NCBI GenBank assembly: GCA_964347155.1
Contig: CAYFXR010000070.1
Span: 7,657-71,656, forward strand
Source: an uncultured Nitrospiraceae bacterium
GTDB taxonomy: Bacteria > Nitrospirota > Thermodesulfovibrionia > UBA6902
DNA length: 64,000 nt
Direction of reading: 5' to 3'
The translations under genes and the position numbers were made by a program. Shown one piece after another: positions 27,878 to 56,695 of the stretch. The stretch's first letter is position 1; the number at the start of each line of letters is the position of its first letter. Under the pieces are notes generated by a model. The model saw only the letters and a program-made list of their open reading frames with translations. It was not told the DNA's origin and did no database searches.

Positions 27878-27890
27878 TTAAACCACATAA

Positions 27891-28058: not shown

Positions 28059-28225
28059 ATCGTTGTTGCATTTTTAAAGATTTTGAAGGTGTCTGTGCCA
28101 CTTATTTAAATAGCTAACTGCATTTTTTGGGTTGACTAATTCAGAATCCTCATATTTTTTTCAACTTTTGTTCATATTTCCTTCGTAATTCTCTGCTATT
28201 TTTTTATTCAGTAATTAACATTATT

Positions 28226-28402: not shown

Positions 28403-28423
28403 TAACTGATTCTAGTCTGACTA

Positions 28424-28450
28424 TTGACAATGCATGGATTGTGTTATACA
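28424..28450 (+). promoter_or_regulatory. Candidate promoter (TTGACA, 15-16 nt spacer, TATACA) for the Met/Gly-rich protein gene
   Basis: Read directly. Sits just right of MITE copy C and about 105 nt upstream of the ATG at 28557, which has an AAGGAGG RBS. Confidence 0.3.
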
Positions 28451-28556
28451 AGGGAATTATAGGAAAATAAGGAGTTAATAGAGTTGAAGGGAGGTGGTAT
28501 GCTGTTGTTATGAATGCTGAAAAACAAGAAAAATATGTTAAGGAGGTATTGGTAAT

Positions 28557-29034
28557 GAAACGAATATTGATAATAACTTTAATAATAGCAGGCTTAACGG
28601 CTGCTTACAGCTTTGCTGAGATGCAAAGAGGCATGATGGGCACAAAGGGTCAGGAAAAGACTAGTGAGACACCTTATAGTGGTGGTTATTATCCATGCCC
28701 TCAAATGATGGGACAGGGTATGATGGGTTATGGCGGTTACGGAATGATGGGACCAGGTATGATGGGTTATGGTATGATGGGTCATCACAGGATGGGTGGT
28801 ATGATGGGTCCTGGCATGATGGGCTATGGTGATTACGGTACAGGGAAATATGATCCTGAGGCATATCAAAAATATCTGGATGACACAGTGGACTTAAGGA
28901 AAAAACTTCACAACAGGAAATTTGACTATTTTGAGGCGCGCAGGAACCCTGATACAAAGCGCGAGACCCTCTTGAAAATTGAAAAAGAAATTCATGATAT
29001 TCAGTGGGAAATATACGAAAAGGCCCCGAGATAA
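28557..29034 (+). CDS. Periplasmic Gly/Met-rich protein with a C-terminal Spy/CpxP/ZraP-like helical region (putative metal-binding)
   Basis: Signal peptide MKRILIITLIIAGLTAAYSFA. Repeats MMGQGMMGYGGYGMMGPGMMGYGMMGHHRMGGMMGPGMMGYG, then a predicted helical tail. AAGGAGG RBS 8 nt upstream. The track ORF starts at 28510. Confidence 0.5.
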
Positions 29035-35161: not shown

Positions 35162-36781
35162 GTGCTTAAACTGCTTTTAAAAGATATTGCAATAAGAGAA
35201 AATTTGTCTGTCCAGAGTAATACCTCTTTAAGAAATTCAATTAAGTTAATGAATATTAACAGAAAAGGTGTGGTTGTTGTGCTGGAGGATAAACGACTGG
35301 CAGGAATCTTAACTGAAAGGGATATTATTAAAATATTATATGAGGGCATTAACCTGGATGAAAGTGTAGATAAATATGCCAAGAAAACTTTGGTTTCAAC
35401 CAAAGGGTGCAGGACAGTAGGTTATGCTTTGAATTTGACAATTGATAATAAAATAAGAAGGGTGATAGTCACAGATGATTCAAATAATTTTATCGGTCTT
35501 GTCACACAGCAGGATTTACTTAAATATGTTGAAGAGGATTTTTATCGCCTAAGCATTAAGGTCAAGCATATTTTGAAAGATGCTGGAAGTCTGATCAGTG
35601 TCTCCTCAGATGATCCATTAATTAACGCACTCAAAAAGATGATAGAAAATAAAATTAGTGCTGTTGTAGTAATGGAAGATAGAGCAGTTGTAGGAATCAT
35701 AACAGAGAAAGATATTTTAAAACTGGCTGGTGACAATATTTCCCTTGAAAATATGGTAGACAAATATATGTCCAGTCCTGTTGAAACTGTTTGCAACGAC
35801 TCACCCCTTGTTGAAATTGTAGAAGTAATGAATTACAAGAACATCAGAAGAGTCTTAATCGTTGATCAGGAGGGACGGGAGATTGGTATACTTACCATAA
35901 GAGATGTGATTAAAAATTTAGAGGGAGATTACAGTAAATTTCTTGAAAGGAAGCTTAGAAATGCCAGGGAGATTTTGAACTTGCTCCCTGAGATGCTTAT
36001 AGAGATAGCTGACACCGGAAAAGAGCAGTTAATAGTCTGGGCAAACAGCAAAGTTATTGAAAAATTTGGCAAAGAAATTCTGGATAAATCTGTAGCAGAC
36101 TTTCTCCAAAGGAAAAATTGGAATAAAATCTATGATACCTTGAATAAATTAACCAAAGTAGAAAATATAAGGCTCAAGAAAGACAATAGAATTTATGAAC
36201 TTTCCGGATTTTTATTAAGAATTGATGGAAGAATAGAAAAAAGAAGATACCAGCTTATAATAAGAGATATTACGGAAGAAGTCAGACTATCTACGTTCGA
36301 CCCCCTCACTAATATTTATAACAGAAGGTTCATAAATGGATTCATGATACAAGAAATAGAAAGAAGCAAGCGGTCTTACAAAAAATTTTCTATTGTAATA
36401 TGTGATATAGACGATTTTAAAAAAATCAATGATATACACGGGCACTTATCAGGAGACATTGTACTTAAATCTGTTTCCCAGCTTATAACAAATACTATCA
36501 GGCATCTGGATGTTGTGGGAAGGTATGGAGGAGATGAGTTTATGATAATTTTGCCAGAGGCATCCGGCCAAACAGCTTCTCATATTGTAGATAGAATCAG
36601 ATTTAATATCGGTAGCTTGGAAATACCGGTTCTCAAAAACAAAAAAGTAAAAGTTACTGCCAGTTTCGGTATCGCGACTTTTCCAGAAGATGGGATATCC
36701 CCGGATGACTTACTTATTGCAAGCGATGAAAGGTTATATAAAACTAAAAGCTCCGGGAAAAATAAAGTTTTTTACAATTAA
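35162..36781 (+). CDS. Diguanylate cyclase (GGDEF) with tandem CBS-pair sensory domains
   Basis: Two CBS pairs in the N-terminal half. C-terminal GGDEF domain with RYGGDEFMIILPE active-site motif; 539 aa. Confidence 0.7.
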   Translation: MLKLLLKDIAIRENLSVQSNTSLRNSIKLMNINRKGVVVVLEDKRLAGILTERDIIKILYEGINLDESVDKYAKKTLVSTKGCRTVGYALNLTIDNKIRRVIVTDDSNNFIGLVTQQDLLKYVEEDFYRLSIKVKHILKDAGSLISVSSDDPLINALKKMIENKISAVVVMEDRAVVGIITEKDILKLAGDNISLENMVDKYMSSPVETVCNDSPLVEIVEVMNYKNIRRVLIVDQEGREIGILTIRDVIKNLEGDYSKFLERKLRNAREILNLLPEMLIEIADTGKEQLIVWANSKVIEKFGKEILDKSVADFLQRKNWNKIYDTLNKLTKVENIRLKKDNRIYELSGFLLRIDGRIEKRRYQLIIRDITEEVRLSTFDPLTNIYNRRFINGFMIQEIERSKRSYKKFSIVICDIDDFKKINDIHGHLSGDIVLKSVSQLITNTIRHLDVVGRYGGDEFMIILPEASGQTASHIVDRIRFNIGSLEIPVLKNKKVKVTASFGIATFPEDGISPDDLLIASDERLYKTKSSGKNKVFYN

Positions 36782-36805
36782 CCCACATAATGCATTATCT
36801 GGGTT
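36781..36805. repeat. TIR-only mini-palindrome of the MITE family (ACCCACATAATGCATTATCTGGGTT) at the GGDEF gene 3' end
   Basis: Read directly. Left and right MITE termini abutted. Forms a hairpin immediately after the stop codon. Confidence 0.6.
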
Positions 36806-36865
36806 ATGAACAAATTAGTTGTATATGTCAACATTTGCATTTACAAAAATTGTAACTCGTTTTGC

Positions 36866-36990
36866 TGTCTTGATAATAAAAGGATTCAAGGATTCGAAGA
36901 TTCAAGGGGTCAAGGATTATTTAATAAAATTAATTCCTTCACTTGAACCCCTGGACCCTTGACCACTCGAACCCTTGAGAGAAAAATTCG
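36866..36990. terminator. Large imperfect palindrome between convergent genes (candidate bidirectional terminator)
   Basis: GGATTCAAGGATTCGAAGATTCAAGGGGTCAAGGATT ... CCTTCACTTGAACCCCTGGACCCTTGACCACTCGAACCCTTGAG lies between the GGDEF gene (+) and the cytochrome gene (-). Confidence 0.35.
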
Positions 36991-37040
36991 GGAAAAGCCT
37001 TTACAATACTTGTAAACGCTTTTTGTAGCTATCATAAATT

Positions 37041-38057
37041 TTAATGTCCGAATAGATTTGGTATGATAAAAGTCTTATATTTTGTTACGAGACTTTTAAT
37101 ATTCAAATACTGTAAATCTTTGGTCTTTTTATCATCAAAACCGAGTGCTTGAAAATCCAATATGCCGTCTGGAGAATGACATTCATTGCAGGCGAAACTG
37201 ATCTCTTTTCTTGCAATATCTCTGTGGAAGTAGCTTAGCTGTTCTTTTCTCTCTTCAGGACTAATGTTTTTTTCTTTGTCAAGATACTCTCTGGCTTTTT
37301 CATTGTCCTTTGTATTTATCAATAATATCCCCCCCTTTTTTCCGGTTTTAAAAACGGCAATTCTTGATATTACATACTCTGTCTTTTGTGTTTCATCTGA
37401 ATCGTCTTTTTGAGATGAAAATATCTTTAACATCCTGGTTATCAAACTTTCAGTTTCCCCGTTTTCTTCGTTTTCACGCTTTTGGTGTGTTCCGTAAGGC
37501 TCACCGGTAAATTCGAACTCTTCAGGTTCTTTCCAATCATATGCCAGGTATTTCAGTTTATCCTTTTTAAGATGGCATACTTCGCAGAGCATGAAACCTG
37601 TATGCATGTTTACAAGAGCCCTGACCTTATTATTTTCACTGTGAGGGTATAAAGGATGGCAGACCCGGCAGGATGATTTGTCATTGAGGAGGGTGATGGC
37701 AAATCTTTCATCCTTATGGAAGTTGACAAAATATGCCGGATCAATGGTATCTATTTTTTCCTTGTCTTCAAGATGGCATTCGGTAGTGCAATCAACATCT
37801 GTTACGTTTGTATGTGGAAACTGAACTATCTGTGGATGGCATTGCTTGCAGTCTGTTTTGCCGTGTTTGGATGAGATGTGCTTTTCTTCGTCAATATGGA
37901 GTACTTTAAATTTATCGGGTTTTTCAAACTTTACGAGACCGGGATACCGATGACAGGTAAGGCATCCTCCCTTATCTACGGCAAGGCATTGAGGAGGAGA
38001 TTTTAAGACAAAATATGAAATTGTGATAAATAATATCAAAAAAACATGCTTTTTCAT
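37041..38057 (-). CDS. Multihaem c-type cytochrome (secreted)
   Basis: Six CxxCH/CxxxCH motifs (CLTCH, CKQCH, CTTECH, CRVCH, CEVCH, CNECH). Signal peptide MKKHVFLILFITISYFVL. The start is set at the internal Met. Confidence 0.75.
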   Translation of the reverse strand: MKKHVFLILFITISYFVLKSPPQCLAVDKGGCLTCHRYPGLVKFEKPDKFKVLHIDEEKHISSKHGKTDCKQCHPQIVQFPHTNVTDVDCTTECHLEDKEKIDTIDPAYFVNFHKDERFAITLLNDKSSCRVCHPLYPHSENNKVRALVNMHTGFMLCEVCHLKKDKLKYLAYDWKEPEEFEFTGEPYGTHQKRENEENGETESLITRMLKIFSSQKDDSDETQKTEYVISRIAVFKTGKKGGILLINTKDNEKAREYLDKEKNISPEERKEQLSYFHRDIARKEISFACNECHSPDGILDFQALGFDDKKTKDLQYLNIKSLVTKYKTFIIPNLFGH

Positions 38058-38081
38058 TTGTAAACACAGAAAGCACATTTA

Positions 38082-38239
38082 CAACAATGCAGGCTTTGTG
38101 AAAAAATTTATTTTTCGATACCTTAACATAATTTTAATCCATAGAGCGGTATATATGTTTGTGCAAAGACATTTGCATAATTTAATAAAAAAATCATAGA
38201 GTTAAATAGATTTTTGAACAATGTCTGTATTATTTGGGT
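38082..38239 (-). mobile_element. MITE-like repeat, copy D (inverted orientation), immediately upstream of the cytochrome gene
   Basis: The reverse complement reads CAAATAATACAGACATTGTTCAAAAATCTATTTAACTCTATGATTTTT...GGTATCGAAAAATAAATTTTTTCACAAAGCCTGCATTGTTGT. Confidence 0.6.
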
Positions 38240-38325
38240 AAAAAGTTTTTTCTTCAAGTAAGTAGTACTCTTAGAGCAAAATCAGATTTTTTTTATTCTG
38301 TTCACAAGGTTAATTATACATTATA

Positions 38326-38883
38326 TTATTTAGCTGGTAACTCTTGAATATTCAGCACCTTTATATCAAAATGGAGGATTTTGCCGGCTAAAGGGTGGTT
38401 GTGATCAAGTACAACAGTTTGTTCTTTAATTTCTGCAACGCGTGCATACACAATCTGCCCGTTGGCATCCTGGCCCTTTAGCATTATCCCGACTTTCATT
38501 GCATCTTGCGGAATCTGTTCCTTGCTGATCTCCATAAAAGCATTCTTGTTAACAGTGCCATAGCCTTCCTCAGGGCTTACTGTTACTTGCTTACTTTCAC
38601 CAATTTTCATCCCCTCCATCGCCTTTTCAAGCCCCGGAACAATTTGCTGAGATCCATGAACGTAGGTCAACGGTTCAGACCCAACATTGGTATCAACCGT
38701 AGCGTTATCTTCCAGCTTGAGAGTATACTCGATTGAAACTTTCTTGCCTGATGAAACTGTCATCTCTTTTTCTCCTTTCTTTGTTTCTGCTTGAACGAAT
38801 GATGAACCGATCAAAGCATAGAGGATCGAAACAAAAACAACAAATGACTTGATCGTATGTACTTTCACTGATTTTTCCTCCAT
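38326..38883 (-). CDS. FKBP-type peptidyl-prolyl cis-trans isomerase (periplasmic)
   Basis: Signal peptide. FKBP C-terminal motif VVLDHNHPLAGKILHFDIKVLNIQ; 185 aa. Confidence 0.7.
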   Translation of the reverse strand: MEEKSVKVHTIKSFVVFVSILYALIGSSFVQAETKKGEKEMTVSSGKKVSIEYTLKLEDNATVDTNVGSEPLTYVHGSQQIVPGLEKAMEGMKIGESKQVTVSPEEGYGTVNKNAFMEISKEQIPQDAMKVGIMLKGQDANGQIVYARVAEIKEQTVVLDHNHPLAGKILHFDIKVLNIQELPAK

Positions 38884-39279
38884 ATGTAGATATTAACGGA
38901 AATAGACTGGAAGGGTTTTCTGTGCTGTTGATTGGATAATTGTTTTATTCCAGACTTTTCTGGAAATATCTTCCTTATTAAAGAATTTTTATAAGCTTAA
39001 CATAGGGAGTGAAAATAGTCTATTGATAAAAAGGTAAAAAGTTTGAAGCCCGATATAGGGCTGCATTAAGGTATCGAGATGATTTTTCCCGCCTGCTCCG
39101 CATAACCCGGCAGCAAAAGTATCGCTCAATTTAGATTTTAATATCTTGACAATATGGCAGTTGATAATACTTTTTTGCTCCTTTAAACTAAAACACATAC
39201 ATAACCCAATTCCAGTTGGGAGCATACAACTCAGTATTTTTTCTATCTGGAACCAGGATCAATGTGGAGGTCTGCGATT

Positions 39280-39774
39280 ATGGCGGAACATTCATTTGAC
39301 ATAGTCAGTAAAGTTGATATTCAGGAGGTTTCCAATGCTATCCATCAAGCAATGAAAGAAATCAAGCAGCGGTTTGATTTCAGAGGCAGTAAAAGTAATA
39401 TTGAACTTGACAGGGGCAGGAACGAAATACTTGTTTTATCTGACGATGCATACAAATTAAAAAGTGTTATTGATGTCCTGCAGAGCAAACTGATTAAGAG
39501 AAAAGTTTCCCTAAAGGCATTACATTATGGGAAAGTTGAAGATGCACTTTCGGGAACTGTTAAACAGCTTATAAGCCTTCAGCAGGGAATCCCGACAGAA
39601 AAGGGCAAAGAGATTGTGAAAGTCATAAAAAATACAAAAATCAAAGTACAGGCAGAAATCCAAAAAGACCAGCTCCGTGTCAGGGCAAAGAAGATAGATG
39701 ACCTACAGTCAATAATAAATCATTTGAAAGAGAAAGATCTGGGGATTCATATGGAGTTTGTAAATTACAGATAA
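39280..39774 (+). CDS. yajQ: YajQ-family (UPF0234) nucleotide/c-di-GMP-binding protein
   Basis: [34 protein letters not shown]...LISLQQGI...[13 protein letters not shown] aligns along its length with YajQ proteins as I recall them. Confidence 0.7.
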
Positions 39775-39881
39775 GTATAGAGTGATTGGTCATGAGTAAT
39801 GAGTTTGGAACTGAATTTAATCATATTTACTTGACTCTTAACTCCTAACTCTTAACTCTGAAGTATTGTATAATACAACGT

Positions 39882-41999
39882 ATGGGTTTTTGGGATGACA
39901 TTAAACATGATTTCAGAGCTGTATTTGAGATGGATCCTGCTGCAAGAAGCAGGCTAGAAGTTATTTTTTCTTATTCAGGATTTCATGCAATCCTGTTTCA
40001 CAGAATCAATCACGTGTTGTGGAAAATGAATATTCCCGTATTGCCCCGTTTTTTCTCCCAGGTTGCAAGATTTATTACCGGCATAGAAATACATCCTGCA
40101 GCAAAGATAGGAAAAGGGTTTTTTATTGATCACGGTATGGGCGTCGTCATAGGAGAGACAACAGAGATAGGCGAGAATTGCCTTCTTTATCAGGGAGTTA
40201 CACTTGGCGGCACCGGAAAGGAAAGGGGCAAGAGGCATCCAACTCTTGGTAATAACGTAGTAGTTGGAGCGGGCACAAAAGTTCTCGGTGCAATAACGAT
40301 CGGGGATAATGTGAAAATAGGAGCAAACTCCGTCTTGCTGAACTCTGTACCGAAGAACTCTATTGTCGTTGGCGTGCCGGGCAGGGTGATTAAAAAGAAG
40401 GTTGTAAAGATGTTAGCCGAAGGACCTGTAGAAATGCTCGATCATGTGCACATACCTGACCCGCTCGAGGAGAAATTCGAGGAAATCAAAACTTATATGA
40501 ATGATCTTGAAAGGAGAATGAGCACATTGGAAGGCAGAGGTGAAACGATTAAGGTTTTTAACACACTCAGCGGGAAAAAAGAGGATTTTGTTCCCCTTAA
40601 TTCAGGCAAGGTGAATATGTATGTATGCGGGATAACGGCTTATGACGTCTGCCATTTGGGCCATGCACGAAGTGCAATTGTATTTGATATTATAAAGCGG
40701 TACCTGAGATACAGAGGCTATGACGTAACGCATGTACGGAACATAACCGATATTGACGACAAAATTATTGCCCGTGCAGCAGAGGAGAAGATTTCTACGG
40801 AAGAGGTAGCAAAAAAATATTCAGAAGAATATTACAGGGATATGGAATTGCTCGGTGTAAGCAGGGCTGACATTGAGCCAAACGCAACGGATCACATTAA
40901 GGAAATGATAGAAAATGTTCAGGGGCTGATTGATAAAGACTATGCCTACAGTGTTGATGGAGATGTTTATTTTGAAGTCAGCAAGTTTCCGAGCTATGGA
41001 AAACTGTCAAAAAAGAACAAAGATGACCTTATGGCCGGGGCAAGGGTCGATGTGGACGAGAGGAAGAAGAGTCCCCTTGATTTTGCTTTATGGAAGGCCT
41101 CTAAGGAAGGTGAGCCTTTCTGGGAAAGCCCGTGGGGAAAAGGCAGACCGGGATGGCATATAGAATGCACGGCAATGTCGTCAAAATACCTTGGGGAAAG
41201 TTTTGATATACACGGTGGTGGAGCTGATCTTATTTTCCCGCACCATGAAAACGAAATAGCACAGAGTGAGGCTTTCACTGGCAAGCCGTTTGTAAGATAC
41301 TGGATGCATAATGGATTTATAACTGTTGATAACGAAAAGATGTCAAAATCCCTGGGAAACTTTTTTACCATCAAAGAAATCCTTGAAAAATTTGAGCCTG
41401 AGGTAGTGCGATATTTTCTCCTGACTACACATTACAGAAGTCCGATAGAGTTTTCAGATGCGCAGTTGAATGAGGCAGAGCTTTCTATCGATAGATACTA
41501 TACAACAGTGATGAGGATCAATGATTTTCTCGAAACAACTGTAACCGCCGAAAAGATTACCTCGTCGGCTGAACTTGAGGATTTACTGTCTTCATTTAGG
41601 GAAAAGTTTCACAATGCAATGAATGACGATTTCAATACGGCTTCAGTATTAGGATTCATTTTTGAGCTTGTCAGGGAAGTGAACCGATTTCTTGATTTAA
41701 ACCCTTCGGGGCAGAAGGCAAAAGACCTCGTTACCCGTACAAAAGAACTTCTTGCTGAAGGGGGAGATGTCCTTAATATATTCAACAAGACACCTGTTGA
41801 ATGGTATAGGTCGTTAATGAAAGTCAAGAAGATAGAACTTGCGGAGGAAATGCTTCATAACAAGATAGCAGAGAGACGGGAAGCACGAAAACAAAAGGAC
41901 TGGGATACTGCAGATAATATAAGAAAAGAGCTTGCAGAAAAAGGAATTATTCTTGAAGACAAGAAAGACGGGACGGCATGGAAGATCAAGGTTGGGTGA
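39882..41999 (+). CDS. cysE-cysS: Serine O-acetyltransferase (CysE) and cysteinyl-tRNA synthetase (CysS) encoded as one continuous 705-aa ORF
   Basis: N-terminal CysE hexapeptide region (GVVIGETTEIGENCLLYQGVTLGGTGK...) and CysE-type tail (LDHVHIPDP...LERRMSTLE). This is followed directly by CysS (IKVFNTLSGKKEDF, HLGHARS HIGH motif, KMSKSLGN) with no stop. An in-frame ATG at 40518 is preceded by GAAAGGAGA. Confidence 0.7.
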   Translation: MGFWDDIKHDFRAVFEMDPAARSRLEVIFSYSGFHAILFHRINHVLWKMNIPVLPRFFSQVARFITGIEIHPAAKIGKGFFIDHGMGVVIGETTEIGENCLLYQGVTLGGTGKERGKRHPTLGNNVVVGAGTKVLGAITIGDNVKIGANSVLLNSVPKNSIVVGVPGRVIKKKVVKMLAEGPVEMLDHVHIPDPLEEKFEEIKTYMNDLERRMSTLEGRGETIKVFNTLSGKKEDFVPLNSGKVNMYVCGITAYDVCHLGHARSAIVFDIIKRYLRYRGYDVTHVRNITDIDDKIIARAAEEKISTEEVAKKYSEEYYRDMELLGVSRADIEPNATDHIKEMIENVQGLIDKDYAYSVDGDVYFEVSKFPSYGKLSKKNKDDLMAGARVDVDERKKSPLDFALWKASKEGEPFWESPWGKGRPGWHIECTAMSSKYLGESFDIHGGGADLIFPHHENEIAQSEAFTGKPFVRYWMHNGFITVDNEKMSKSLGNFFTIKEILEKFEPEVVRYFLLTTHYRSPIEFSDAQLNEAELSIDRYYTTVMRINDFLETTVTAEKITSSAELEDLLSSFREKFHNAMNDDFNTASVLGFIFELVREVNRFLDLNPSGQKAKDLVTRTKELLAEGGDVLNIFNKTPVEWYRSLMKVKKIELAEEMLHNKIAERREARKQKDWDTADNIRKELAEKGIILEDKKDGTAWKIKVG

Positions 42000-42010
42000 T
42001 GAATGTTCTG

Positions 42011-42781
42011 CTAATTTCTATATTTTTTGCAAAAAACCTCTGTGATGTTCCAAAGCTCGTCTGTTAAAGATTCCTTGACCTTGGCCTGTATGAAATCTGG
42101 AATGTTTCCATAGTATGCATCGGCAATTCCACCGGTTATGCAAGCAAGGGTGTCGCTGTCGCCACCGAGAGAAATTGCATTACGGATTGCATCTTCGTAT
42201 GAGGTAGATTCAAGAAAGGCAATGATCGCCTCCGGAACAGTACCCTGACAGGATACGTCGAAGTGGTAGTGAGGGCGTATCTCGTCCAGGCTCTTTTCCA
42301 GTTTGTAACCGAATCTGTGCTGAATTTCTTTTTTGATATGTTCCTTATCCTGTGTAGTGCGGGCAAGGAAAACAGATAGTGCAGTGGCCTGAGCACCTTT
42401 AATTCCTTCAGGATGATTGTGGGTGATTTCCGCAGATTTAGCGGCTTCATCCAGGACTCTTTCGATACTGTCAAATGCAAAGCCGACCGGACTTACGCGC
42501 ATGGCCGAGCCGTTTCCCCAGCTGTTGTAGGGCCGGGGATCTTCAGAAAGCAGCCAGTAAATGAATGAACCGCCATACCCAGCATGAGGATACTTCCGCC
42601 CGATCTTTCTGATTGACGAAAGGTAATCAGAAACATCCAGGATTGATTTTGCAACGGCAACGGTCAGTACAGAGTCATCTGTAAAACGACAGAGTGGATG
42701 GAAGAGGGGAAAATCCTTTGTCTTGATTGGATAACCTTCATAAACAGAGCCGATAATATCTCCTGCAATCGCACCTATCAT
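42011..42781 (-). CDS. ADP-ribosylglycohydrolase family protein (DraG-like)
   Basis: MIGAIAGDIIGSVYEG N-terminus and ...GGDSDTLACITGGIADAYYG C-terminal metal-site motif; 256 aa. Confidence 0.7.
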   Translation of the reverse strand: MIGAIAGDIIGSVYEGYPIKTKDFPLFHPLCRFTDDSVLTVAVAKSILDVSDYLSSIRKIGRKYPHAGYGGSFIYWLLSEDPRPYNSWGNGSAMRVSPVGFAFDSIERVLDEAAKSAEITHNHPEGIKGAQATALSVFLARTTQDKEHIKKEIQHRFGYKLEKSLDEIRPHYHFDVSCQGTVPEAIIAFLESTSYEDAIRNAISLGGDSDTLACITGGIADAYYGNIPDFIQAKVKESLTDELWNITEVFCKKYRN

Positions 42782-42870
42782 GAGTTTTTTAGCACCCTTT
42801 CTGTAGGGTTACCCATTTAAAGGGCGCATGTCAAGCGAAAAAACTCCCATTTCCGTGAAAAGCATTCTGC

Positions 42871-42934
42871 GGGGTCAGGTCTTTCATTGTGACAGTTTTG
42901 TAACAATGAATGTAACAATGAAAGACCTGACCCC
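42871..42934. repeat. Perfect 20-bp inverted repeat (GGGGTCAGGTCTTTCATTGT ... ACAATGAAAGACCTGACCCC) with a 24-nt spacer, followed by a CTGACCCCACACAC direct repeat
   Basis: Read directly. Lies between the HigA-like gene 3' end and the ADP-ribosylglycohydrolase gene 5' end. Confidence 0.7.
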
Positions 42935-42976
42935 ACACACTCTGACCCCACACACTTAATTTTTTTCAACGCTTGG

Positions 42977-43237
42977 TTATGCCGCTGTTTTTTTCTTTAT
43001 GTCCCACCCGGGAAAAACGAGAACTGCAGGATGACACCTGAGAGCTATCGCGATTACCTTCGCCCGCTCAACTCCTAGCTTGACCCGATCGTTTTCGATA
43101 GCTGAAATAGTAGATTGAGGAATTCCTGTAATTTCAGCCAGATCGTTTTGACTCATTTCTTGCAGTTCCCTGATAATCCTTACCGATTCTCCAACTGTTA
43201 CATCTACCGTCTTCTTTGCCTTTTTGAAATTTCTCAT
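42977..43237 (-). CDS. HTH XRE-family antitoxin (HigA-like)
   Basis: LQEMSQNDLAEITGIPQSTISAIENDR helix-turn-helix. The start at the internal Met abuts the upstream toxin gene stop. Confidence 0.65.
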   Translation of the reverse strand: MRNFKKAKKTVDVTVGESVRIIRELQEMSQNDLAEITGIPQSTISAIENDRVKLGVERAKVIAIALRCHPAVLVFPGWDIKKKTAA

Positions 43238-43238
43238 T

Positions 43239-43520
43239 TTATTTCCTCCTATAATCATGAGGAGTAATATTTATAACCTGGACAAATATATCTTTGGCTG
43301 CAATCTTGTAAATAATTCTATATTTTATACCTAACCTTGATGATCTAAATCCTTTCCATTCACCTCGCAAAGCCTCGTCATGGAACCCTTTGATGAATCT
43401 TAAGCCTTCCGGGCCTGATATCCTTACAATGTCTTTCCATTTTTCATAATGTTTTAATATTTCTACGGGCAATCCATTAAGCTGTTTAGTCACACGTCGA
43501 TGCTCATATATTTCCCACAT
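43239..43520 (-). CDS. RelE/ParE-superfamily toxin (HigB-like; toxin-first gene order)
   Basis: 93-aa basic protein upstream of and translationally coupled to the XRE antitoxin. Family assignment is from size, context and composition. Confidence 0.5.
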   Translation of the reverse strand: MWEIYEHRRVTKQLNGLPVEILKHYEKWKDIVRISGPEGLRFIKGFHDEALRGEWKGFRSSRLGIKYRIIYKIAAKDIFVQVINITPHDYRRK

Positions 43521-43534
43521 ACAGTATTGTATAT

Positions 43535-43550
43535 ATACTATTTATAGTAT
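43535..43550. promoter_or_regulatory. Palindromic candidate operator (ATACTATTTATAGTAT) in the toxin-antitoxin promoter region
   Basis: Perfect 7-bp arms about 15 nt upstream of the toxin start codon. Confidence 0.4.
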
Positions 43551-43559
43551 GTCAATTAA

Positions 43560-44077
43560 AGGCTGATGTCAATATTTATTGTAGTGTGTTATCCGGGGGT
43601 ATCCGGGGTCTATAATGATTAACGCGTGGGGTCACCCTTCAATTTACATTTTATAAAATTACTTAAATGTATAATGTAGGTTTGACCCTGATTCTCTGGA
43701 AGCCCCCACTTATCCGATTATGTTTTTTTCATGTGGGGTTCCGCCCCCACACGACGGGTTCATTCTTTTTTCCGCAAAAAAGAACGAACAAAGAAAAAGC
43801 GCCCCTTACATCCCGGAAACAATCAATAGGGTTATTAATACATAAGTGGCACGGCGATGCTGTGTCCTTACTTCTGACTTCTGCACTAGTGCACTTTTGC
43901 TCTATGATATTTTTGTGGGTGAACATTCACTATCCGGCTACGGCCCGATAGTCTCTGTGAAACGCCCCTTGCGGACGTAAAAGTCCCGTCAGGACAACGT
44001 CCCTTTACGGGACCCGCATGAGGGGTGTTGTGGAGAGCGGGGGAGAGAAGCCCCCGCTTATCCGATTGTACGATCTT
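43560..44077. other. GC-rich non-coding island of about 520 bp with 21-bp direct repeats and terminator-like hairpins (candidate small RNA genes or an integrated remnant)
   Basis: GAAGCCCCCACTTATCCGATT+T7 at 43699-43729 and GAAGCCCCCGCTTATCCGATT at 44047-44067 preceded by the hairpin GCGGGGG-AGAGAAG-CCCCCGC. Internal hairpins are TGTGGGG..CCCCACA and GGACG..CGTCC/GTCCC..GGGAC. No credible ORF. Confidence 0.4.
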
Positions 44078-44554
44078 TTATGTCTTTAGTTGTTTTCTAA
44101 TATAAGTATGATCGCAATAGCTATCACCCGTTCCGATTTGATGTTTGCGTTCAAAGTCCCAGTTATTAATGTTATCTTTCGCAACTTCCCAATCGCCACT
44201 GCAAACATAAGGGCCGATGTCTATATATCCAAGCAGTATCACAAGTTCAGCAAAGGGGCAGTTTGCTACATGCAGTTTAAGAATGTTGCTGCTATTTTCA
44301 GCAATTGAAATATCGTAAAAAGGCCGTAACCATTTGGCCCTCCTGGTTATTATATCTTTCAACTTGTCGAAGTCATCAGCACTATCTACATAAGGAACGA
44401 GAATTCTCACGAAAGTTTTTGCGATCCTGACGATAATTGGGCGCATTATTTCTATAGCCTTTTCTCTTGATGAAAAAAGGGACAGGATTTTGATACACAG
44501 TATAACCGGGCCTGCTACAACAATGGCTACCAATTGTCTTAATATTTTTTTCAC
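44078..44554 (-). CDS. Hypothetical protein with N-terminal TM helix
   Basis: 158-aa ORF (MKKILRQLVAIVVAGPVILCIKIL...). No motif recognised. Confidence 0.3.
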   Translation of the reverse strand: MKKILRQLVAIVVAGPVILCIKILSLFSSREKAIEIMRPIIVRIAKTFVRILVPYVDSADDFDKLKDIITRRAKWLRPFYDISIAENSSNILKLHVANCPFAELVILLGYIDIGPYVCSGDWEVAKDNINNWDFERKHQIGTGDSYCDHTYIRKQLKT

Positions 44555-44783
44555 ACAATTACCTCAGCAGATTATCAGCTGCCTTAAATTATGTCGTACA
44601 ACGCCTGAGTCAGTGATGCAGGCCTGAATAATATAAAGTGACATTTTATTTTGAAGCATAACGTGGAGCTGAGTGACGAGTACTACTGTATTGCAGTAGG
44701 TTGCTTGAAAATAATTTGACAACCTAAAATTAATCCGAGCTAAAAAAGCGCCCTGTGGTACTCGTTCGATCTCCAACGCCTTG

Positions 44784-45329
44784 TTATCTTTTCAATATTT
44801 TTTCATCTGCCCCCGCAGCTTTAAGTAACTCAACAACTTCTTCATGCCCCTCATGCTGAGCTACAATCAAAGCCATTGCTAACCGTTTTGAATCTTTATT
44901 TGCTCCATTATCTAATAATAGCTAAACTACTTCTGTGCTGCCATTAAGGGATGCGTATATTAGCGCTGTTAATCCTTCGCTTGTTCTGGCATGTACATCT
45001 GCTCCATGATTTAATAAATTATTAGTTATCTTAGCGTTACTACACGTAGCAGCTCTCATTAATGGTGACATTCCTTCATTATCCTGAGCATTTACATTTG
45101 CCCCTCTATCTAATAAAACTTGCACAGCTCGAGTTTGTCGGTGTCTGCATGATGCTAATATTAAGGGTGTCCTGCCTCGTGCATCTCTGGCATTTACGTC
45201 TACTCCTTCATCTAATAGATTCTCTATAGAACCATAATATCCGTGTGTTGCATTCCAGTATATATCATTCACTTGAGCGCATGCTATTGTCAGTATAAAT
45301 GCTAACAATAAAATACTTGAGAATCTCAT
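44784..45329 (-). pseudogene. Ankyrin-repeat protein (secreted) interrupted by an in-frame TAG (plus-strand cta at 44922-44924)
   Basis: Track ORF 44922..45425 ends ...LNGSTEVV*. The same frame continues LLLDNGANKDSKRLAMALIVAQHEGHEEVVELLKAAGADEKILKR to a TAA at 44784-44786, completing an ankyrin repeat. The stop sits where K/E/Q is expected (EVV-x-LLL). Confidence 0.6.
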
Positions 45330-45684
45330 GAAGCCTCCTTTTGTATTTCTTAAAGATAACATATTAATAGAGTAAACTCGTTTTTCTTGGATTTTCAATA
45401 TACCTGTCAAAAATACCAGTTTCATAAATGATTGAAATTAAACTAAACTTATTTTTAATGGCATTCTTGTTTGCTCTGTAATAACATATATACCAAATAT
45501 CGTTTTTGCTGACTTTTTATCATTTTCAGGGGACATGCAATGAAGAAAGAAGTATTGCCCGAATTCCAGAATTATCTGCGTTCAAATAGCCTTGTCCACG
45601 AAAAGTATATAAAATTTTATGTCCATTGGGCAAGGAAATTCTTATAGCTATTAGCTATAAGCTGTAGGCTATAAGCTCAAATTT

Positions 45685-46044
45685 ATGAAAGACTTTAAGG
45701 ATTTGAAAGTATGGGAGCGCGGTCATAAGTTAACTTTAAAAATATATAAAATCACATCAGGTTTTCCTCGCGAAGAATTGTATGGATTAACTAGCCAAAT
45801 GCGAAGATCTTGTGCTTCAATTCCAACAAATATAGCTGAAGGGTGTGGAAGGAGCAGAGATACAGAACTTGCACGTTTTCTGGAAATTTCAATATGTTCA
45901 TCAAGCGAGCTGGAGTATCTACTTTTATTAAGTACAGACCTGAATTTTATAACTAAATCTGAAAGTGAAATTTTGAACGGTGAGCTAGTCGAAATAAAGA
46001 GGATGTTAATATCTTTTTATCAAAAGCTTAAAGCTAAAAGCTAA
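45685..46044 (+). CDS. Four-helix-bundle protein (23S rRNA intervening-sequence protein family, TIGR02436-like)
   Basis: KVWERGHKLTLKIYKIT..FPREELYGLTSQMRRSCASIPTNIAEG is the family signature region as I recall it; 119 aa. Confidence 0.65.
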   Translation: MKDFKDLKVWERGHKLTLKIYKITSGFPREELYGLTSQMRRSCASIPTNIAEGCGRSRDTELARFLEISICSSSELEYLLLLSTDLNFITKSESEILNGELVEIKRMLISFYQKLKAKS

Positions 46045-46518
46045 ATGCTTATAGCTTAGCAACCATGATCTATCTTCACTTCATAAGAGAATTGTCTGGT
46101 GCCCCTGAAAGTCCTATTGATAGTCTGAATAAAGACGAATGAAATAAGCGGAAAGTTTATTTATTATAAAATCTCCCCTCGCCCCTCTTTGCCAAAGAGG
46201 GGGATTATATATAAATCAACCTCAAACTATGGAGGTTGAACCTCCATAGTTGTTACTCTGACAGTTCCAGATTCGGATACACCCTGGAAAAAGACACCAG
46301 AATCTTGACTGAATTCTCAGGATAGGTCATCGAAAAATCTTTAATCCTCCCTTGCCCCCCTTTTATAAAGGGGAGGAATTAAAGTATAGATTTCGGATCA
46401 AGTCCGGAATGACAATTGTGGTACAGCATTGGTTCAATCGAGGAAAATTAAACCAGCAGAAGGGAATGAGATACATTTTTAATTTTGCATTTTGTAATTT
46501 AAATTTGCAATCCCTGTT

Positions 46519-46545
46519 AACCCAAAAAATGCATTATTTGGGTTA
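46519..46545. repeat. TIR-only mini-palindrome of the MITE family (AACCCAAAAAATGCATTATTTGGGTT) at the 3' end of the ABC ATPase gene
   Basis: Read directly. A near-perfect 26-nt palindrome 13 nt downstream of the minus-strand stop at 46558. Confidence 0.6.
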
Positions 46546-46557
46546 AACTCAAGTGTT

Positions 46558-47625
46558 CTAACAGGTTATCCTTTGCCCGTTGTAAAAGAAATGTACTCCT
46601 GTGTCGTCTAATGCAATTGAAATTTCCTGGCCTGTTTTTCCCTGAAAACCTGAAGGTGCCTTGGCAATCAGTCTTATATCATCGATTTTTATATAAAGAA
46701 TGGTTTCGGGGCCGAGATGTTCGATTAATTCCAGATGCCCCCTGATAGGCCCGTGTCCCGGTGTTAAAGACTCGGATCTGATGCCCATGGTAATATCTTG
46801 ATTCGCATATTTCTTTAGCTCTTCCCTTAATCCAAGGCGGATCGTTAGTTTGTCTGATTTGAAAAACATTTCTTTTTCATTGACATCTAAAAGCCCTTTG
46901 ACGAGATTTATCTGGGGGGTGCCAATGAAGGTTGCTACGAAAAGATTCGACGGGGTGTGGTACATTTCATCCGGGGTACCGATCTGTTGTATCACGCCCT
47001 GATCAAGCAACACTATTTTTTCTCCGAGTGTCATTGCCTCTACCTGGTCATGAGTAACATATAGGGTAGTGGCTTTTAATTTTTGATGGAGTCGTGCGAG
47101 TTCCACCCTCATGCTGCTTCGCAGTTTTGCATCAAGATTGGACAGAGGTTCGTCAAAGAGAAACAATTTCGGGTTTCTGACAATTGCCCTTCCAATTGCA
47201 ACCCTCTGCCTTTGACCGCCTGACAATTCTTTTGGTTTCCTGTTCAATAATTCCTCAATACCTAAAAGAACTGCTGTTTCTTTTACCTTCTTATCCATCT
47301 CTTGTTTTGGCCTCTTCCGCATTTTTAGAGAAAAAGCCATGTTTTCATATACATTGAGATGAGGATAAAGGGCATAGCTCTGAAAAACCATTGCAATATC
47401 TCTTTCCTTTGGTGTGAGATTGCTTACTTCCCTGTCACCTATGAAGATTTCCCCATCATCCTGCTGCTCGAGCCCAGCAATTAACCTGAGTACCGTTGTT
47501 TTCCCGCACCCTGACGGGCCAAGGAGTATACAGAATTCACCTTCCTTGACTTCAAAGGAAATAGCATTGATAACCTTCGTAGTACCGAAGGATTTTTGTA
47601 GATTATCTATTTTCAGATTTGCCAT
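46558..47625 (-). CDS. ABC transporter ATP-binding protein, MalK/UgpC/PotA type with C-terminal TOBE-like domain
   Basis: GPSGCGKTT, LSGGQRQRVAIGRA, LFLFDEPLSNLD; 355 aa. No cognate permease adjacent. Confidence 0.75.
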   Translation of the reverse strand: MANLKIDNLQKSFGTTKVINAISFEVKEGEFCILLGPSGCGKTTVLRLIAGLEQQDDGEIFIGDREVSNLTPKERDIAMVFQSYALYPHLNVYENMAFSLKMRKRPKQEMDKKVKETAVLLGIEELLNRKPKELSGGQRQRVAIGRAIVRNPKLFLFDEPLSNLDAKLRSSMRVELARLHQKLKATTLYVTHDQVEAMTLGEKIVLLDQGVIQQIGTPDEMYHTPSNLFVATFIGTPQINLVKGLLDVNEKEMFFKSDKLTIRLGLREELKKYANQDITMGIRSESLTPGHGPIRGHLELIEHLGPETILYIKIDDIRLIAKAPSGFQGKTGQEISIALDDTGVHFFYNGQRITC

Positions 47626-47724
47626 GATTAGATTTTTTACTGAAGAAATTATACCATTATGCGGTTTTTTGAAGGGGGATTTTTACAATGATCAGACAAA
47701 TGATGAAGTTTGCATCCTTCCTGT

Positions 47725-48996: not shown

Positions 48997-50304
48997 TCAT
49001 TCGCTTATCATACCGGCGTCTGTAAGCGATGACTTTAATGCCTGTACAATCGCTGGATCAAACTGGGTGCTGGCATTTGCCTCGATTTCACTTAAGGCCA
49101 TCTCGTAATCGAGTTGTGTGCTGTTCGAATTTTTATTTGTCAGCATGTCAAACTTATCCGCTACAGAAAGAATACGGGCACAAAGGGGAATTTCATCTCC
49201 TTTTATTGCCATGGGATAGCCGGTACCGTCAAATCTTTCATGATGATGCAGGATAATGTCTGCCGAATCGTTCCAGAGAGAAATAGATTTTATCAAATCA
49301 TATCCAAGTATTGAATGCTGCATAATTTTTTCTTTTTTTCGCTGATCTCTTGGATCAATTTTCAGCATACCAATATCGTGTAAGAGACAGGCATAATAAA
49401 GCCTTTTTAATTCAATCTCGGATAAATTCAGTTGTTTTCCGATATAGTTGGCGTAGTTGGCCACTCTTCGTGAATGTCCTTTCTTGTTCTGTATGTAATC
49501 CTGAGCGCCGACAAGGATTTCAGTTATATGAATAAAATCACTCAGTTGTTTTTCTTTTGATCTGTTTTGCGCAATAGATATACTTGCCTGATCAGCAATA
49601 CTGTGAAGTAATGCTTCTTCTTGTTTGGTAAACACTCCCTGTTTTTTATTCCGAAGTTCAATAGCACCGATGATTTCGTTGGCATATACAAGCGGGACGC
49701 AGATAACCGATTTCGTTTTAAGGCCTGTTTCATTGTCAAAATCAGAATCATATCGTGTATCTTTTGCTGCATTGTTGATAAGGGCCGGTTTTCCGTTTTT
49801 TACCACCCAGCCGGCGATCCCTTCACCAGATTTTAGAGTCCGATTGTTCATTTTTTGAGAGTTTTTTCCAAAGTTAACCTTAAACTGGAGGTTGTCTTTG
49901 TCATCGTTGAGAAGGAGGGACCCTGATTCGGCAGCAATGAGGTTCATAGCTGATTCCATGATTTTTTTCAAGAGAATATCAAGATATAACGTTTCTCGAA
50001 ACTGTTTTGTAATCCCGAAGAGGCTGTTTAATTTTATATTAAGATCCTGTGCAGATACGATGGATGAATTAGTGGCCTTTGTTGAGAGGATTAAACCGAG
50101 AACTGACACGGCAACAGCAAGCACAAGTAATATTCCGACATTTACCGGGATCTTCGAAATGTCACCCTCTGTGACGTACGGATAAATATATTTGATTGAA
50201 AAATAAACAAGCAGGGCTAACGGAATGATGGATGCAATAAAATGTGAGATCTTAACGTAACGGCGAATGTTATCAAAGAAATCTTTACCTTCAAGACCGT
50301 GCAT
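48997..50304 (-). CDS. Membrane-anchored GAF plus HD-GYP domain protein (c-di-GMP phosphodiesterase family)
   Basis: N-terminal TM helices, central GAF-like region, LLHDIGMLKI (HD) and HHHERFDGTGYPMAI (GYP); 435 aa. Confidence 0.65.
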   Translation of the reverse strand: MHGLEGKDFFDNIRRYVKISHFIASIIPLALLVYFSIKYIYPYVTEGDISKIPVNVGILLVLAVAVSVLGLILSTKATNSSIVSAQDLNIKLNSLFGITKQFRETLYLDILLKKIMESAMNLIAAESGSLLLNDDKDNLQFKVNFGKNSQKMNNRTLKSGEGIAGWVVKNGKPALINNAAKDTRYDSDFDNETGLKTKSVICVPLVYANEIIGAIELRNKKQGVFTKQEEALLHSIADQASISIAQNRSKEKQLSDFIHITEILVGAQDYIQNKKGHSRRVANYANYIGKQLNLSEIELKRLYYACLLHDIGMLKIDPRDQRKKEKIMQHSILGYDLIKSISLWNDSADIILHHHERFDGTGYPMAIKGDEIPLCARILSVADKFDMLTNKNSNSTQLDYEMALSEIEANASTQFDPAIVQALKSSLTDAGMISE

Positions 50305-50649
50305 TACCTGGTTCCTCAGTAAATATATATTCTCAGTAACCTATGATGCAAAATTACTATTTAAAATTACTATCTTAATATCGACTATAATCGTTGGAAA
50401 CTTTAGGATTACAGGAGTTCTCCCAATTTTTTAGCTGTATCAACATCTACCTTATCTTAGGAATCTTAGCAAACCCATATGATTTCCCCCTTTGGAAAAG
50501 GGGGATCAAGGGGGATTTTATAATGATTACATCTACAAATCCCCACTTACCCCTTATAGGGGCGTTGCCCCAACGGTGAAAAGCCGCGTTGCGGCCTCGC
50601 CGCTTTACGCGGGGCTTTACGCCCCCCCTTTACTAAAGGGGGGAAATAT

Positions 50650-50740
50650 AAATTGGTATATCAATTAATATTGCCCTTAAGGTACCGACAAATAATTTCT
50701 TTCACAAAGCCTGCATTGTTTGAGGTGCATTTTTTGGGTT
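50650..50740 (+). repeat. Partial MITE-like copy (right half only)
   Basis: ...CTTAAGGTACCGACAAATAATTTCTTTCACAAAGCCTGCATTGTTTGAGGTGCATTTTTTGGGTT. Lies upstream of the GAF-HD-GYP gene. Confidence 0.55.
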
Positions 50741-51120
50741 CAGGACGGGGTGTGCAGTAATGCTTACCAGATCAAGGAAAGAAAAGCGTCGAGGTCTGTT
50801 TGAAGACGGTTAAACTTGCACCAGATTACCATACACTCCTCTGAACGATAGCAATAACCGTCTTTAATTACTACATGAATACTTACACCCGTCCTTTCAC
50901 GGTACGGGCATGGTATGTGAAGCTTTCCCGTTTCTATTGCATAGACTTTCTGCATGAGCGGGTCTTTCATATTTATATTTTATTCTTATTCGTATACCTT
51001 TGTAAATTGGTTTTGTTTGGTATAATTATCATGAGCAAATAGTGAATTTTTTTGAAAAAAAAATGTAGACTATATGTAACTGTAAATAAAGGAGATAATC
51101 TTTTGAACAATAGTGTCCCC

Positions 51121-52782: not shown

Positions 52783-52908
52783 CAACTTTTTAAAACCCTC
52801 TTTCCCCCACGTTTAATCCAAACAATGCATTTTTTTAAACTTGTCAAAATATCAGGCATTGTCCCAAGTTTGTATGATGGAAATAACGATGTTTAAGTTT
52901 TTTACTTT

Positions 52909-53085
52909 ACCCAAATAATGCAGACATTGCTCAAGAAATTATTTAACTCGATAAAATTATTATTAAATTATGCATATATCTTGGAACAAAAATATTCACC
53001 TTAGATTGGTTGGAATTGCGTCTAAGGTATCGAAAAATAATTTCTTTCACAAGGCCTGCATTATTTGAAATGCATTTTTTGGGTT
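52909..53085 (+). mobile_element. MITE-like repeat, copy E, upstream of the second DUF3391-HD-GYP gene
   Basis: ACCCAAATAATGCAGACATTGCTCAAGAAATTATTTAACTCGATAAAATTATT...CACAAGGCCTGCATTATTTGAAATGCATTTTTTGGGTT. Flanked by about 28-bp direct repeats (..AATGCATTTTTTTAAACTTGTCAAAATAT at 52823-52852 and 53352-53379). Confidence 0.7.
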
Positions 53086-53220
53086 TATAAGAAAACGCTA
53101 TCATTACCCGACCCCCTAATCAAGTCAGAGGGTATGCTTGATCGAACAATCCAGAAATAGGAATTGGATTCGGGCACAGATACCTTCAAAATCTTTAAAA
53201 ATGCAACATGATTATTGGAT

Positions 53221-53283: not shown

Positions 53284-53418
53284 ATGTTCAAATGTGTTGC
53301 TTTTAAAGCTTTTTCAGGCATCTGTGCCTCCTATGATCGCATTTTGGGGTAAATGCAATTTTTAAACTTGTCAAAATATTAAGTTAATGCGGTATCTATC
53401 CGAATTATATAGATAGTT

Positions 53419-56630: not shown

Positions 56631-56695
56631 TTTTTACACAGCTGCATTATCTTGTCAAGAATAGAAAGTATATGATATATTTAATAAAAGTAACA

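Follow-up and report, generated by a model that had tools for sequence, protein, structure and literature searches.

Tip-only palindromes of a candidate low-copy MITE-like family at gene ends in an uncultured Nitrospirota genome

Two short palindromes lie at the 3´ ends of two genes, encoding a CBS-GGDEF protein and an ABC transporter ATPase, in a 64,000-nt stretch of DNA from an uncultured Nitrospiraceae bacterium (contig CAYFXR010000070.1, positions 7,657 to 71,656; hereafter the window). Both consist of the left tip and the right tip of a 178–182-nt element that also occurs in full in the window, joined through a single central TGCA common to the two tips. Related mini-palindromes from other assemblies are concentrated at stop codons, and are flanked in most cases by TTAA. 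We favour the view, at a probability of roughly 0.55, that the long form is a previously undescribed low-copy, non-autonomous family of uncultured Nitrospirota, which resembles the small transposable elements with inverted repeats known as MITEs and inserts at TTAA, and that the mini-palindromes are tip-only derivatives of it.

The palindromes and the long element in the window

The palindromes are real, and chance is excluded. A search of the window with the 26-mer at up to 7 mismatches returned only the two matches, both within 2 mismatches, against 0.12 expected. When up to 3 mismatches are allowed, the window contains 29 matches to the 15-nt half-site AACCCAAATAATGCA where 4.3 are expected, and none of 100 shuffles reaches 29. 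As RNA, the palindromes are predicted to form hairpins of 10–11 base pairs, with energies between −9.3 and −11.9 kcal/mol (z −2.7 to −3.8). An earlier reading made from the sequence alone (the sequence-only reading) had described the palindromes as the two abutted termini of a 178-bp element, and this was borne out exactly, tip to tip across TGCA. Its boundaries require small corrections. Palindrome 1 had been placed at 36781–36805, starting at the last base of the GGDEF stop codon; the palindrome stands, and its run begins one base earlier, such that the last two bases of the TAA stop (36779–36781) lie inside the 26-mer. The first TTAA flank contains this TAA, and with the flank the entire stop codon is covered. 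For palindrome 2, the 13-nt distance to the TAG stop of the ABC ATPase gene (46558–46560, minus strand) was correct, and the end lies at 46544 rather than 46545. Two additional pieces had been listed. The one at 52812–52836 contains a genuine left half-site followed by a decayed right half; it differs from the mini-palindrome consensus at 8 of 26 positions, as counted from the sequence, and is not recovered at up to 7 mismatches. The other, at 56642–56652, is an 11-nt resemblance that lacks statistical support.

The 178-bp element of the sequence-only reading also proved real. Five full copies and one half copy are present within 64 kb, spread over unrelated spacers at 76–93% identity; four of them (22312, 27878, 28224 and 52906) are 85–93% identical. 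The termini are CCCAAATAATGCA on the left and TGCATTTTTTGGG on the right, and the ends, AACCCAAATAATGCAG... at the left and ...CTGCATTATTTGAAATGCATTTTTTGGGTT at the right, form imperfect inverted repeats of ~45 nt. From left to right the element comprises AACCCAAATAATGCA, ~150 nt that carry these ~45-nt repeats (an example of the core is AAATAATTTCTTTCACAANGCCTGCATT), TGCATTATTTGAAA and TGCATTTTTTGGGTT. The half-sites it contains are a left one, a partial right one in the interior and a right one at the end. The element folds as a single long hairpin (−40 to −46 kcal/mol, z about −4) and is taken as non-coding from its AT-rich sequence. No Rfam match was found across the whole window at gathering thresholds, and permissive scans of 27800–28520 and 36700–37100 returned nothing relevant, just chance microRNA-like matches on an unrelated hairpin. 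A tRNA and tmRNA search of the window found none. Coordinates are collected in Table 1.

Table 1. Palindromes, long-element copies and adjoining features, in window coordinates.
Feature	Position	Strand	Remarks
Mini-palindrome 1, AACCCACATAATGCATTATCTGGGTT	36780-36805		full 26-mer
Mini-palindrome 1 plus flanks, TTAA-CCCACATAATGCATTATCTGGG-TTAT	36778..36807	.	
Mini-palindrome 2, AACCCAAAAAATGCATTATTTGGGTT	46519-46544		26-mer
Mini-palindrome 2 plus flanks, TTAA-CCCAAAAAATGCATTATTTGGG-TTAA	46517..46546	.	
CBS-GGDEF diguanylate cyclase gene	35162..36781	+	Pfam: four CBS domains and GGDEF
ABC transporter ATPase gene, MalK/UgpC-like	46558..47625	-	Pfam: ABC_tran and OB_MalK
Long copy	22312-22493	+	flanks TTTAA / TTTAA
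Long copy	27878-28059	+	its TTAA directly after TAG stop (27875-27877) of HD-GYP gene 26615-27877
Long copy	28224-28405	+	flanks TTAA / TTAA; top nhmmer score, nearest the family model; long hairpin fold
Long copy	52906-53087	+	direct TTTA / TTTA flanks; response-regulator / HD-GYP spacer
Decayed long copy, 76% identical	38062-38241	-	direct TTTA / TTTA flanks
3´ half of long element	50647-50741	+	G+C-rich hairpin sequence in place of the 5´ half
Solo right-end half-site (TGCATTTTTTGGGTT on plus strand)	28119..28133	-	60 nt after copy 27878
Solo left half-site AATCCAAACAATGCA, then decayed right half	52815..52829	+	2 mismatches in left half
Decayed double right end GCATTTTGGGGTAAATGCAATTTTTAAAC	53339..53368	+	same relative position as right end of the L032 element
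GGDEF-cytochrome spacer, 259 nt	36782..37040	.	TTAA at each side; mini-palindrome 1 at start
Accessory island, 3.7 kb	42782..46557	.	missing from L025 and L026

Several features were observed around the long copies. Every long copy is oriented like the next downstream gene (6 of 6, one-sided P = 0.016), and no consistent sigma-70-like promoter facing that gene was found in three long copies. Genes for cyclic-di-GMP turnover are dense in the window (26615–27877, 35162–36781, 48997–50304 and 53419–54621), comprising one CBS-GGDEF gene, two DUF3391-HD-GYP paralogues that are 59% identical, and one GAF-HD-GYP gene; four of the six copies adjoin such genes. The decayed copy sits between the start of the cytochrome gene and the end of the FKBP gene, and the ATG of the element at 38076–38078 is the first in-frame start of the cytochrome open reading frame (ORF). 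At L002 (position 524), a 469-aa ORF likewise has its first in-frame start at the ATG in the AATGCAT centre or right tip of an element. The true starts of both ORFs may lie further downstream. A small ORF that lacks a Pfam match (28510–29034) lies directly downstream of two long copies and contains a repeat family, D6 (28704–28829, units such as AATGATGGGACAGGGTATGATGGGTTATGG), which would encode Met/Gly-rich repeats. Small palindromes rich in G and C, with the form CCCCCCTTT(A/T)AAAGGGGGG, occur repeatedly in spacers (46182–46202, 46352–46378, 50478–50522 and 50623–50643), and one such block replaces the 5´ half of the element at 50647. A 'right tip plus flank' sequence, AATGCAnTTTTTAAACTTGTCAAAATAT, is duplicated at 52823–52851 and 53353–53380 with ~27/29 identity; one duplicate is joined to a left half-site in the manner of a mini-palindrome, whereas the other adjoins a double right end and thus has the arrangement of the long form. 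At 13990–14013, AAATGCATTTTGGGGTTAAT resembles the right tip of the element and forms a TTTTGGGG...CCCCAAAA hairpin just past the stop of a nucleoside transporter gene; this piece may be a distant family relative or a chance match.

Stop codons, flanking repeats and empty sites

In the genome and metagenome collections, further copies were sought with the mini-palindrome pattern only. A scan of 185,579 species, one representative genome each, with the pattern ACCCANANAATGCATTNTNTGGGT gave eight loci, five of which lie in three Nitrospirales/Nitrospiraceae metagenome-assembled genomes (MAGs), and a metagenome scan gave 12 contigs. One match, in Dichelobacter nodosus, is an unrelated hairpin between convergent genes, with ATCA...TGAT flanks and lacking the AACCC ends. 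Combining the matches with the two window copies and removing duplicates and the Dichelobacter hairpin leaves 16 unique mini-palindromes, with the consensus TTAACCCAAATAATGCATTTTTTGGGTTAA. They come mostly from uncultured Nitrospirota and from at least eight assemblies, including MAGs labelled Omnitrophota and Bacteriovoracaceae. Related MAGs among the species representatives carry at most two exact-pattern copies each, a count made with a strict pattern that would miss diverged copies. Neither the mini-palindrome nor the core of the long element was found in viral contigs, and a BLAST search of plasmids with long copy 28224 gave no match.

The mini-palindromes are concentrated at gene ends. 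In 6 of the 16, the TAA of the flanking TTAA is the TAA stop codon of a long ORF; five more begin 7–19 nt past a stop and one begins 74 nt past it, which places 12 of 16 at or just past a gene end. The remaining four lie 0–70 nt upstream of a start codon. Several are located between convergent genes. The baseline was formed by the 157 TTAA sites of the window that do not disrupt any gene, of which 6.4% coincide with a stop codon and 12.7% either coincide with one or follow it within 20 nt. Compared with this baseline, mini-palindromes are enriched both on stops (6/16, P = 3e-4) and on or within 20 nt past them (11/16, P = 3e-7). The sequence-only reading had staked its case on a relation of the palindromes to gene 3´ ends, and since both fractions exceed TTAA availability, that relation holds. 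The genes that end at mini-palindromes are real and untruncated: 8 of 10 ORFs ending at or near them have Pfam domains, most of which reach the C-terminus.

The flanks are short and AT-rich. TTAA is present on both sides of 9 of 16 mini-palindromes and of two long copies in the window, and also of a short variant at L032. Non-palindromic direct flanks were observed as well, with TTTA/TTTA at long copies 52906 and 38062–38241 and TCAA/TCAA at the mini-palindrome of L015.

The comparison of occupied with empty sites, which the sequence-only reading had proposed, could be made at several places. At L027, where the GGDEF protein is 71% identical, a single TTAA supplies the stop codons of both the GGDEF gene and the convergent cytochrome gene, which overlap on it; at L028 the two genes abut. 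The entire 259-nt spacer of the window is missing from both loci. The GGDEF stop falls six codons past a conserved GKN in the window, L027 and L028 alike, and the homologues are 539–540 aa as in the window; the unchanged stop position indicates that the gene was not truncated. The cytochrome/YajQ spacer of L027 is also shorter, contains no half-sites and lacks a counterpart of copy 38062–38241. Within the 259-nt spacer, 36886–36978 forms an unrelated imperfect hairpin of GATTCAAGG-like units (33-nt arms, 73% complementary), with a weakly similar piece at L029 5472–5533.

Another such place is the response-regulator / HD-GYP spacer, where L029 and L030 have no element. At L032, whose HD-GYP protein is 73% identical, a TTAA-flanked version of ~112 nt (2566–2680; also in L031 and L034) occupies the orthologous spacer, 45 nt upstream of the start codon. 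In the window, the half-site at 52815–52829 carries an AATCC variant, as does the left end of the L032 element. Since this half-site and the decayed right end at 53339 stand at places equivalent to the ends of the L032 element, an old copy seems to have been broken up in the window and a newer 182-nt copy added. For copy 27878, no empty site was obtained: none of 120 retrieved HD-GYP homologues was orthologous to 26615–27877, and all were nearer to the paralogue at 53419.

Judging from protein matches, the window belongs with uncultured Nitrospirota; an exact-sequence look-up of its ABC ATPase returned no record. Close relatives otherwise lack the family. The loci of L021–L028 (9 to 21 kb each, with proteins ~70–80% identical) contain no half-sites, compared with 15 in the window, which indicates that the element family is patchy and lineage-specific. 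Another Nitrospiraceae MAG carries a mini-palindrome and a 73% identical long copy (L003, 4786–4965) on one contig. L009 and L017 are nearly identical to the GGDEF locus of the window (95.7% and 99.2%). L017 4493–6579 diverges abruptly from the window at 37074 onward: where the window has the cytochrome gene, L017 continues into argC. L012 matches window 19292–20174 at 99% identity and carries a mini-palindrome where the window has none; its identity drops from 99% to 86%, and it ends in a mini-palindrome. The breaks in L017 and L012, both metagenome contigs, represent either strain-level rearrangement or assembly chimeras at repeats.

Mini-palindrome 2 lies ~20 nt inside the edge of a 3.7-kb accessory island. 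In L025 and L026, where the ABC ATPase is 81% identical, the ATPase gene overlaps an ADP-ribosylglycohydrolase gene by ATGA. The island encodes an Xre-type helix-turn-helix protein paired with a ParE/HigB-like toxin, together with ATC_hydrolase-like, ankyrin-repeat and 23S rRNA intervening-sequence (IVS) proteins. A perfect 20-bp inverted repeat is located near an island edge (42868–42937). In L023–L026 (for example at L025 1684–1715), a hairpin of the form GGTTCAATCG...CGATTGAACC is located upstream of the ABC ATPase gene, and a similar piece is found downstream of the gene in the window, at 46431–46462.

Origin of the tip-only form

A transposase encoded elsewhere would move the long form in trans, and insertion would take place at TTAA-like four-base targets, which would be duplicated in the process. 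At its inner border, each tip adjoins a 6-bp direct repeat, AATGCA. When the stretch between the two AATGCA repeats of copy 28224 is deleted, the product is TTAACCCAAATAATGCATTTTTTGGGTTAAC, which is identical to the palindrome at 46519 together with its flanks. The mini-palindromes are thus probably tip-only derivatives produced by an AATGCA–AATGCA deletion, which could occur by replication slippage stimulated by the long hairpin. Such a route would be independent of transposase and akin to the 'nearly precise excision' of Tn10; for a derivative of Tn10, PMC12524634 (citing d'Alencon et al.) describes a deletion of this sort, which joins short direct repeats across inverted repeats. Internal deletion of a REPIN, leaving a single palindrome, has also been described (PMC3116915). 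The tips themselves argue for common descent. The left tip reads AAATAA where the reverse complement of the right tip reads AAAAAA, which creates a T/T mismatch in 8 of 16 mini-palindromes and in the long copies. This asymmetry, common to the two forms, points to a shared origin, and its retention argues against selection for a perfect hairpin.

The placement on stop codons may follow from the target. TTAA can hold a TAA stop, and its duplication would restore the stop, rendering an insertion on the stop harmless and allowing it to be kept, whereas insertions in genes or promoters would be lost; we propose that the pile-up at gene ends arises in this manner. Any effect of the modest RNA hairpin on transcript 3´ ends would be incidental.

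Of the origins offered by the sequence-only reading, an excision footprint left by transposase is unlikely. Cut-and-paste excision removes the terminal repeats and does not leave both of them intact. 'Solo-TIR relic', a lone terminal inverted repeat, is imprecise, for every copy has both tips, invariably joined at TGCA.

Several observations weigh against the favoured view. Perfectly symmetric mini-palindromes (L011, L007 and L012) are not a direct product of the proposed deletion. Two, at L003 and L007, have inverted flanks, TAAA...TTTA. As TTAA is self-complementary, flanks that are a target duplication and flanks that are part of a longer palindrome look alike in most copies. Only the left end of the 259-nt insert at the GGDEF-cytochrome junction carries an element tip, which implies more than one event. 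No locus was encountered at which one strain carries a long copy and another a mini-palindrome, and Pfam detected no transposase, RAYT, or integrase/recombinase domain in the ~50 window ORFs. Finally, the two forms may differ in placement, as 11 of 16 mini-palindromes and 1 of 6 long copies lie within 20 nt of a stop (Fisher P = 0.056); simple deletion of long copies in place would not produce such a difference.

This possible difference would suit the best-surviving rival, which we regard as rather doubtful: the 26-nt palindrome is itself mobile, and possibly ancestral in the manner of repetitive extragenic palindromic (REP) sequences or an ultra-short MITE, and the 180-nt form is derived from it, either as a composite or through insertion of ~150 nt into the central TGCA with a 14-nt tandem duplication of the right half. 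The 16 sites are non-orthologous and extend to the Omnitrophota and Bacteriovoracaceae MAGs, whereas the long form was seen in Nitrospirota contigs only; as the collections were scanned for the mini pattern alone, this apparently wider spread is an ascertainment effect, and the phylum labels of MAGs may be binning errors. The mini-palindromes have TTAA or TCAA flanks of their own, and at L012 one occupies a site that is empty in the window despite 99% identity. The direct-repeat form of the flanks, together with the absence of a RAYT gene from the window, argues against a REP/RAYT single-strand mechanism. The inner segment of the long form lies within TGCA...TGCA and contains inverted repeats of its own, and REP hairpins are known targets of some insertion sequences (PMC3184786), but this segment was never found without tips. 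At 22–26 bp, the palindrome is also below the 50–800 bp range of prokaryotic MITEs (PMC11602168) and is probably too short for a DDE transposase to pair two ends. The fullest version of this proposal appears unlikely, namely that the 22–26-bp palindrome is a self-sufficient transposable unit of two transposase-binding tips that inserts at TTAA, with a preference for TAA stop codons, which its target duplication would rebuild, and has spread across phyla (Nitrospirota, Omnitrophota and Bdellovibrionota-type MAGs), with the 180-nt form as a lineage-specific elaboration.

It is distinctly improbable that the palindromes are retained because their RNA hairpin acts at the 3´ ends of transcripts, whether as terminator or as exonuclease barrier like E. 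coli REP, with their transposon origin secondary. Enrichment within 20 nt of stops beyond TTAA availability, and the location of several copies between convergent genes, would fit such a role, but 4 of 16 copies lie just upstream of genes, and in the six copies that overlap the stop a terminating ribosome would probably melt the stem, judging from ribosome footprint size. The hairpins are more stable than shuffled sequence; half of the copies nonetheless carry the T/T mismatch, at stem pair 11–20. Three copies show G-C for A-T double changes at one stem position, a point in favour of such a role, yet double changes in quasi-palindromes can come from template switching, with no selection needed. 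The location of REP and SPRITE elements, and the roles suggested for them, are comparable (PMC3184786). Conversely, related MAGs contain at most two exact-pattern copies each, and the relatives' loci, more than 100 kb in total, have no copies, which indicates that genes manage without palindromes. An intrinsic terminator in particular does not fit: the AT-rich stem has only three G-C pairs and is followed by ATGAAC or AAACTC rather than by a T tract, and a terminator scan of 36000–47700 does not call the palindromes. A terminator role is therefore poorly supported, while the hairpin may pose a mild barrier to exonucleases, in the manner of E. coli REP. The suggestion in the sequence-only reading of an ancestral REP-like terminator hairpin, from which the long element grew, is likewise weakly supported, given the missing T tract, the overlap with stops, the frequent mismatch, the low copy number and the absence of a RAYT or other transposase gene from the window.

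A protein-binding site that marks the edges of acquired DNA, whether an operator or a dif-, attC- or lox-like recombination site with 10–11-bp arms around ATGCAT, is barely credible: the 26–30 bp size and symmetry match a recombinase core site, and both window copies lie at an edge of DNA missing in relatives (the 259-nt spacer and the 3.7-kb island), but the other edge of the island has no second site or half-site (the search for one and for outward-facing tip junctions gave six matches against 4.3 expected, not above chance) and the L017 breakpoint lies 290 nt from palindrome 1, for which reasons the palindromes are not read as recombination sites; furthermore, many copies stand at conserved syntenic gene ends with nothing inserted beside them, and neither an integrase nor a recombinase turned up among the window ORFs. 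Integron attC sites (R´´/R´ RYYYAAC...GTTRRRY, 57–141 bp) were rejected specifically, as the mini-palindrome is 26 nt, its right flanks fit the R´ GTTRRRY in 3 of 9 copies by eye, and neither a cassette array nor an integrase is present.

Comparison with known systems

If derivation from the long form is correct, the family, which comes from a group as little studied as the uncultured Nitrospirota, would account for assembly breaks and strain rearrangements around these genes and would provide a natural example of a TTAA-type target that places insertions on stop codons without harm to the gene. The collapse of a MITE into a tip-only palindrome that resembles REP would also bear on the origin of REP-like hairpins. 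If instead the palindrome itself is mobile, it would be the smallest inverted-repeat element known and would extend the known size range of inverted-repeat transposons downward.

The closest likeness is to bacterial MITEs such as Correia/NEMIS of Neisseria, RUP of Streptococcus pneumoniae and Nezha of cyanobacteria. Like these, the long form is a non-coding element of 100–200 nt with terminal inverted repeats that exceed the usual minimum of 10–15 bp, short AT-rich flanks that may be target duplications, and a stable predicted hairpin. It is present as several diverged intergenic copies, with filled and empty sites among relatives and with internally deleted size variants. The family has every hallmark of a MITE except an identified parent element and an unambiguous target duplication. 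Compared with these MITEs, it exhibits certain discrepancies. The apparent target is a TTAA-like 4-bp sequence rather than TA, the copy number is low, and no parent insertion sequence is known. A 26-nt tip-only form, often exactly on stop codons, is also unlike MITEs of 50–800 bp (PMC11602168).

The mini-palindromes share with the REP and REPIN sequences of Enterobacteria and Pseudomonas a short extragenic palindrome near gene ends, often between convergent genes; at 26–30 nt, with 12 of 16 at gene 3´ ends, they agree with the ~20–40 nt size and 3´ bias of REP. Both systems have a longer hairpin-forming form and a shorter form, and the short form of REPINs is thought to arise partly by internal deletion (PMC3116915). 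Whereas REP sequences number tens to hundreds per genome, the copy number here is far lower, at most two exact-pattern copies per MAG. A REPIN is two inverted REPs, but the long form is not two mini-palindromes; rather, the mini-palindrome is the two tips of the long form. The stem is AT-rich instead of G+C-rich, and no RAYT (Y1_Tnp) gene, which usually has REPs on its flanks, was found in the window ORFs. HUH/Y1 enzymes do not create target duplications, which the flanks here resemble.

As for termini and target, a literature search on the terminal sequences returned irrelevant matches only, and CCCAAATAATGCA was matched to no described family. The IS982 termini were rejected, since ACCCAAATAATGCAGA has A at position 9 and GA at 15–16, contrary to the consensus AC(N)6T(N)5TT (PMC7335449). 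Four-base TTAA-like targets are characteristic of the eukaryotic piggyBac superfamily, and insertion sequences of the IS5 group use YTAR 4-bp targets. The family resembles both in having a four-base TTAA-like target that is apparently duplicated on both sides.

With the nearly precise excision remnants of Tn10/Tn5-type transposons, the mini-palindromes share a putative direct-repeat deletion and a small tip palindrome that keeps the putative target-duplication flanks. Those remnants come from laboratory transposons with kb-long inverted repeats, whereas the process here is deduced from sequence and would involve a 180-nt element and 6-bp repeats. The tip-only form and the stop-codon placement are the sole unusual aspects of the family; otherwise it is one more small bacterial repeat family.

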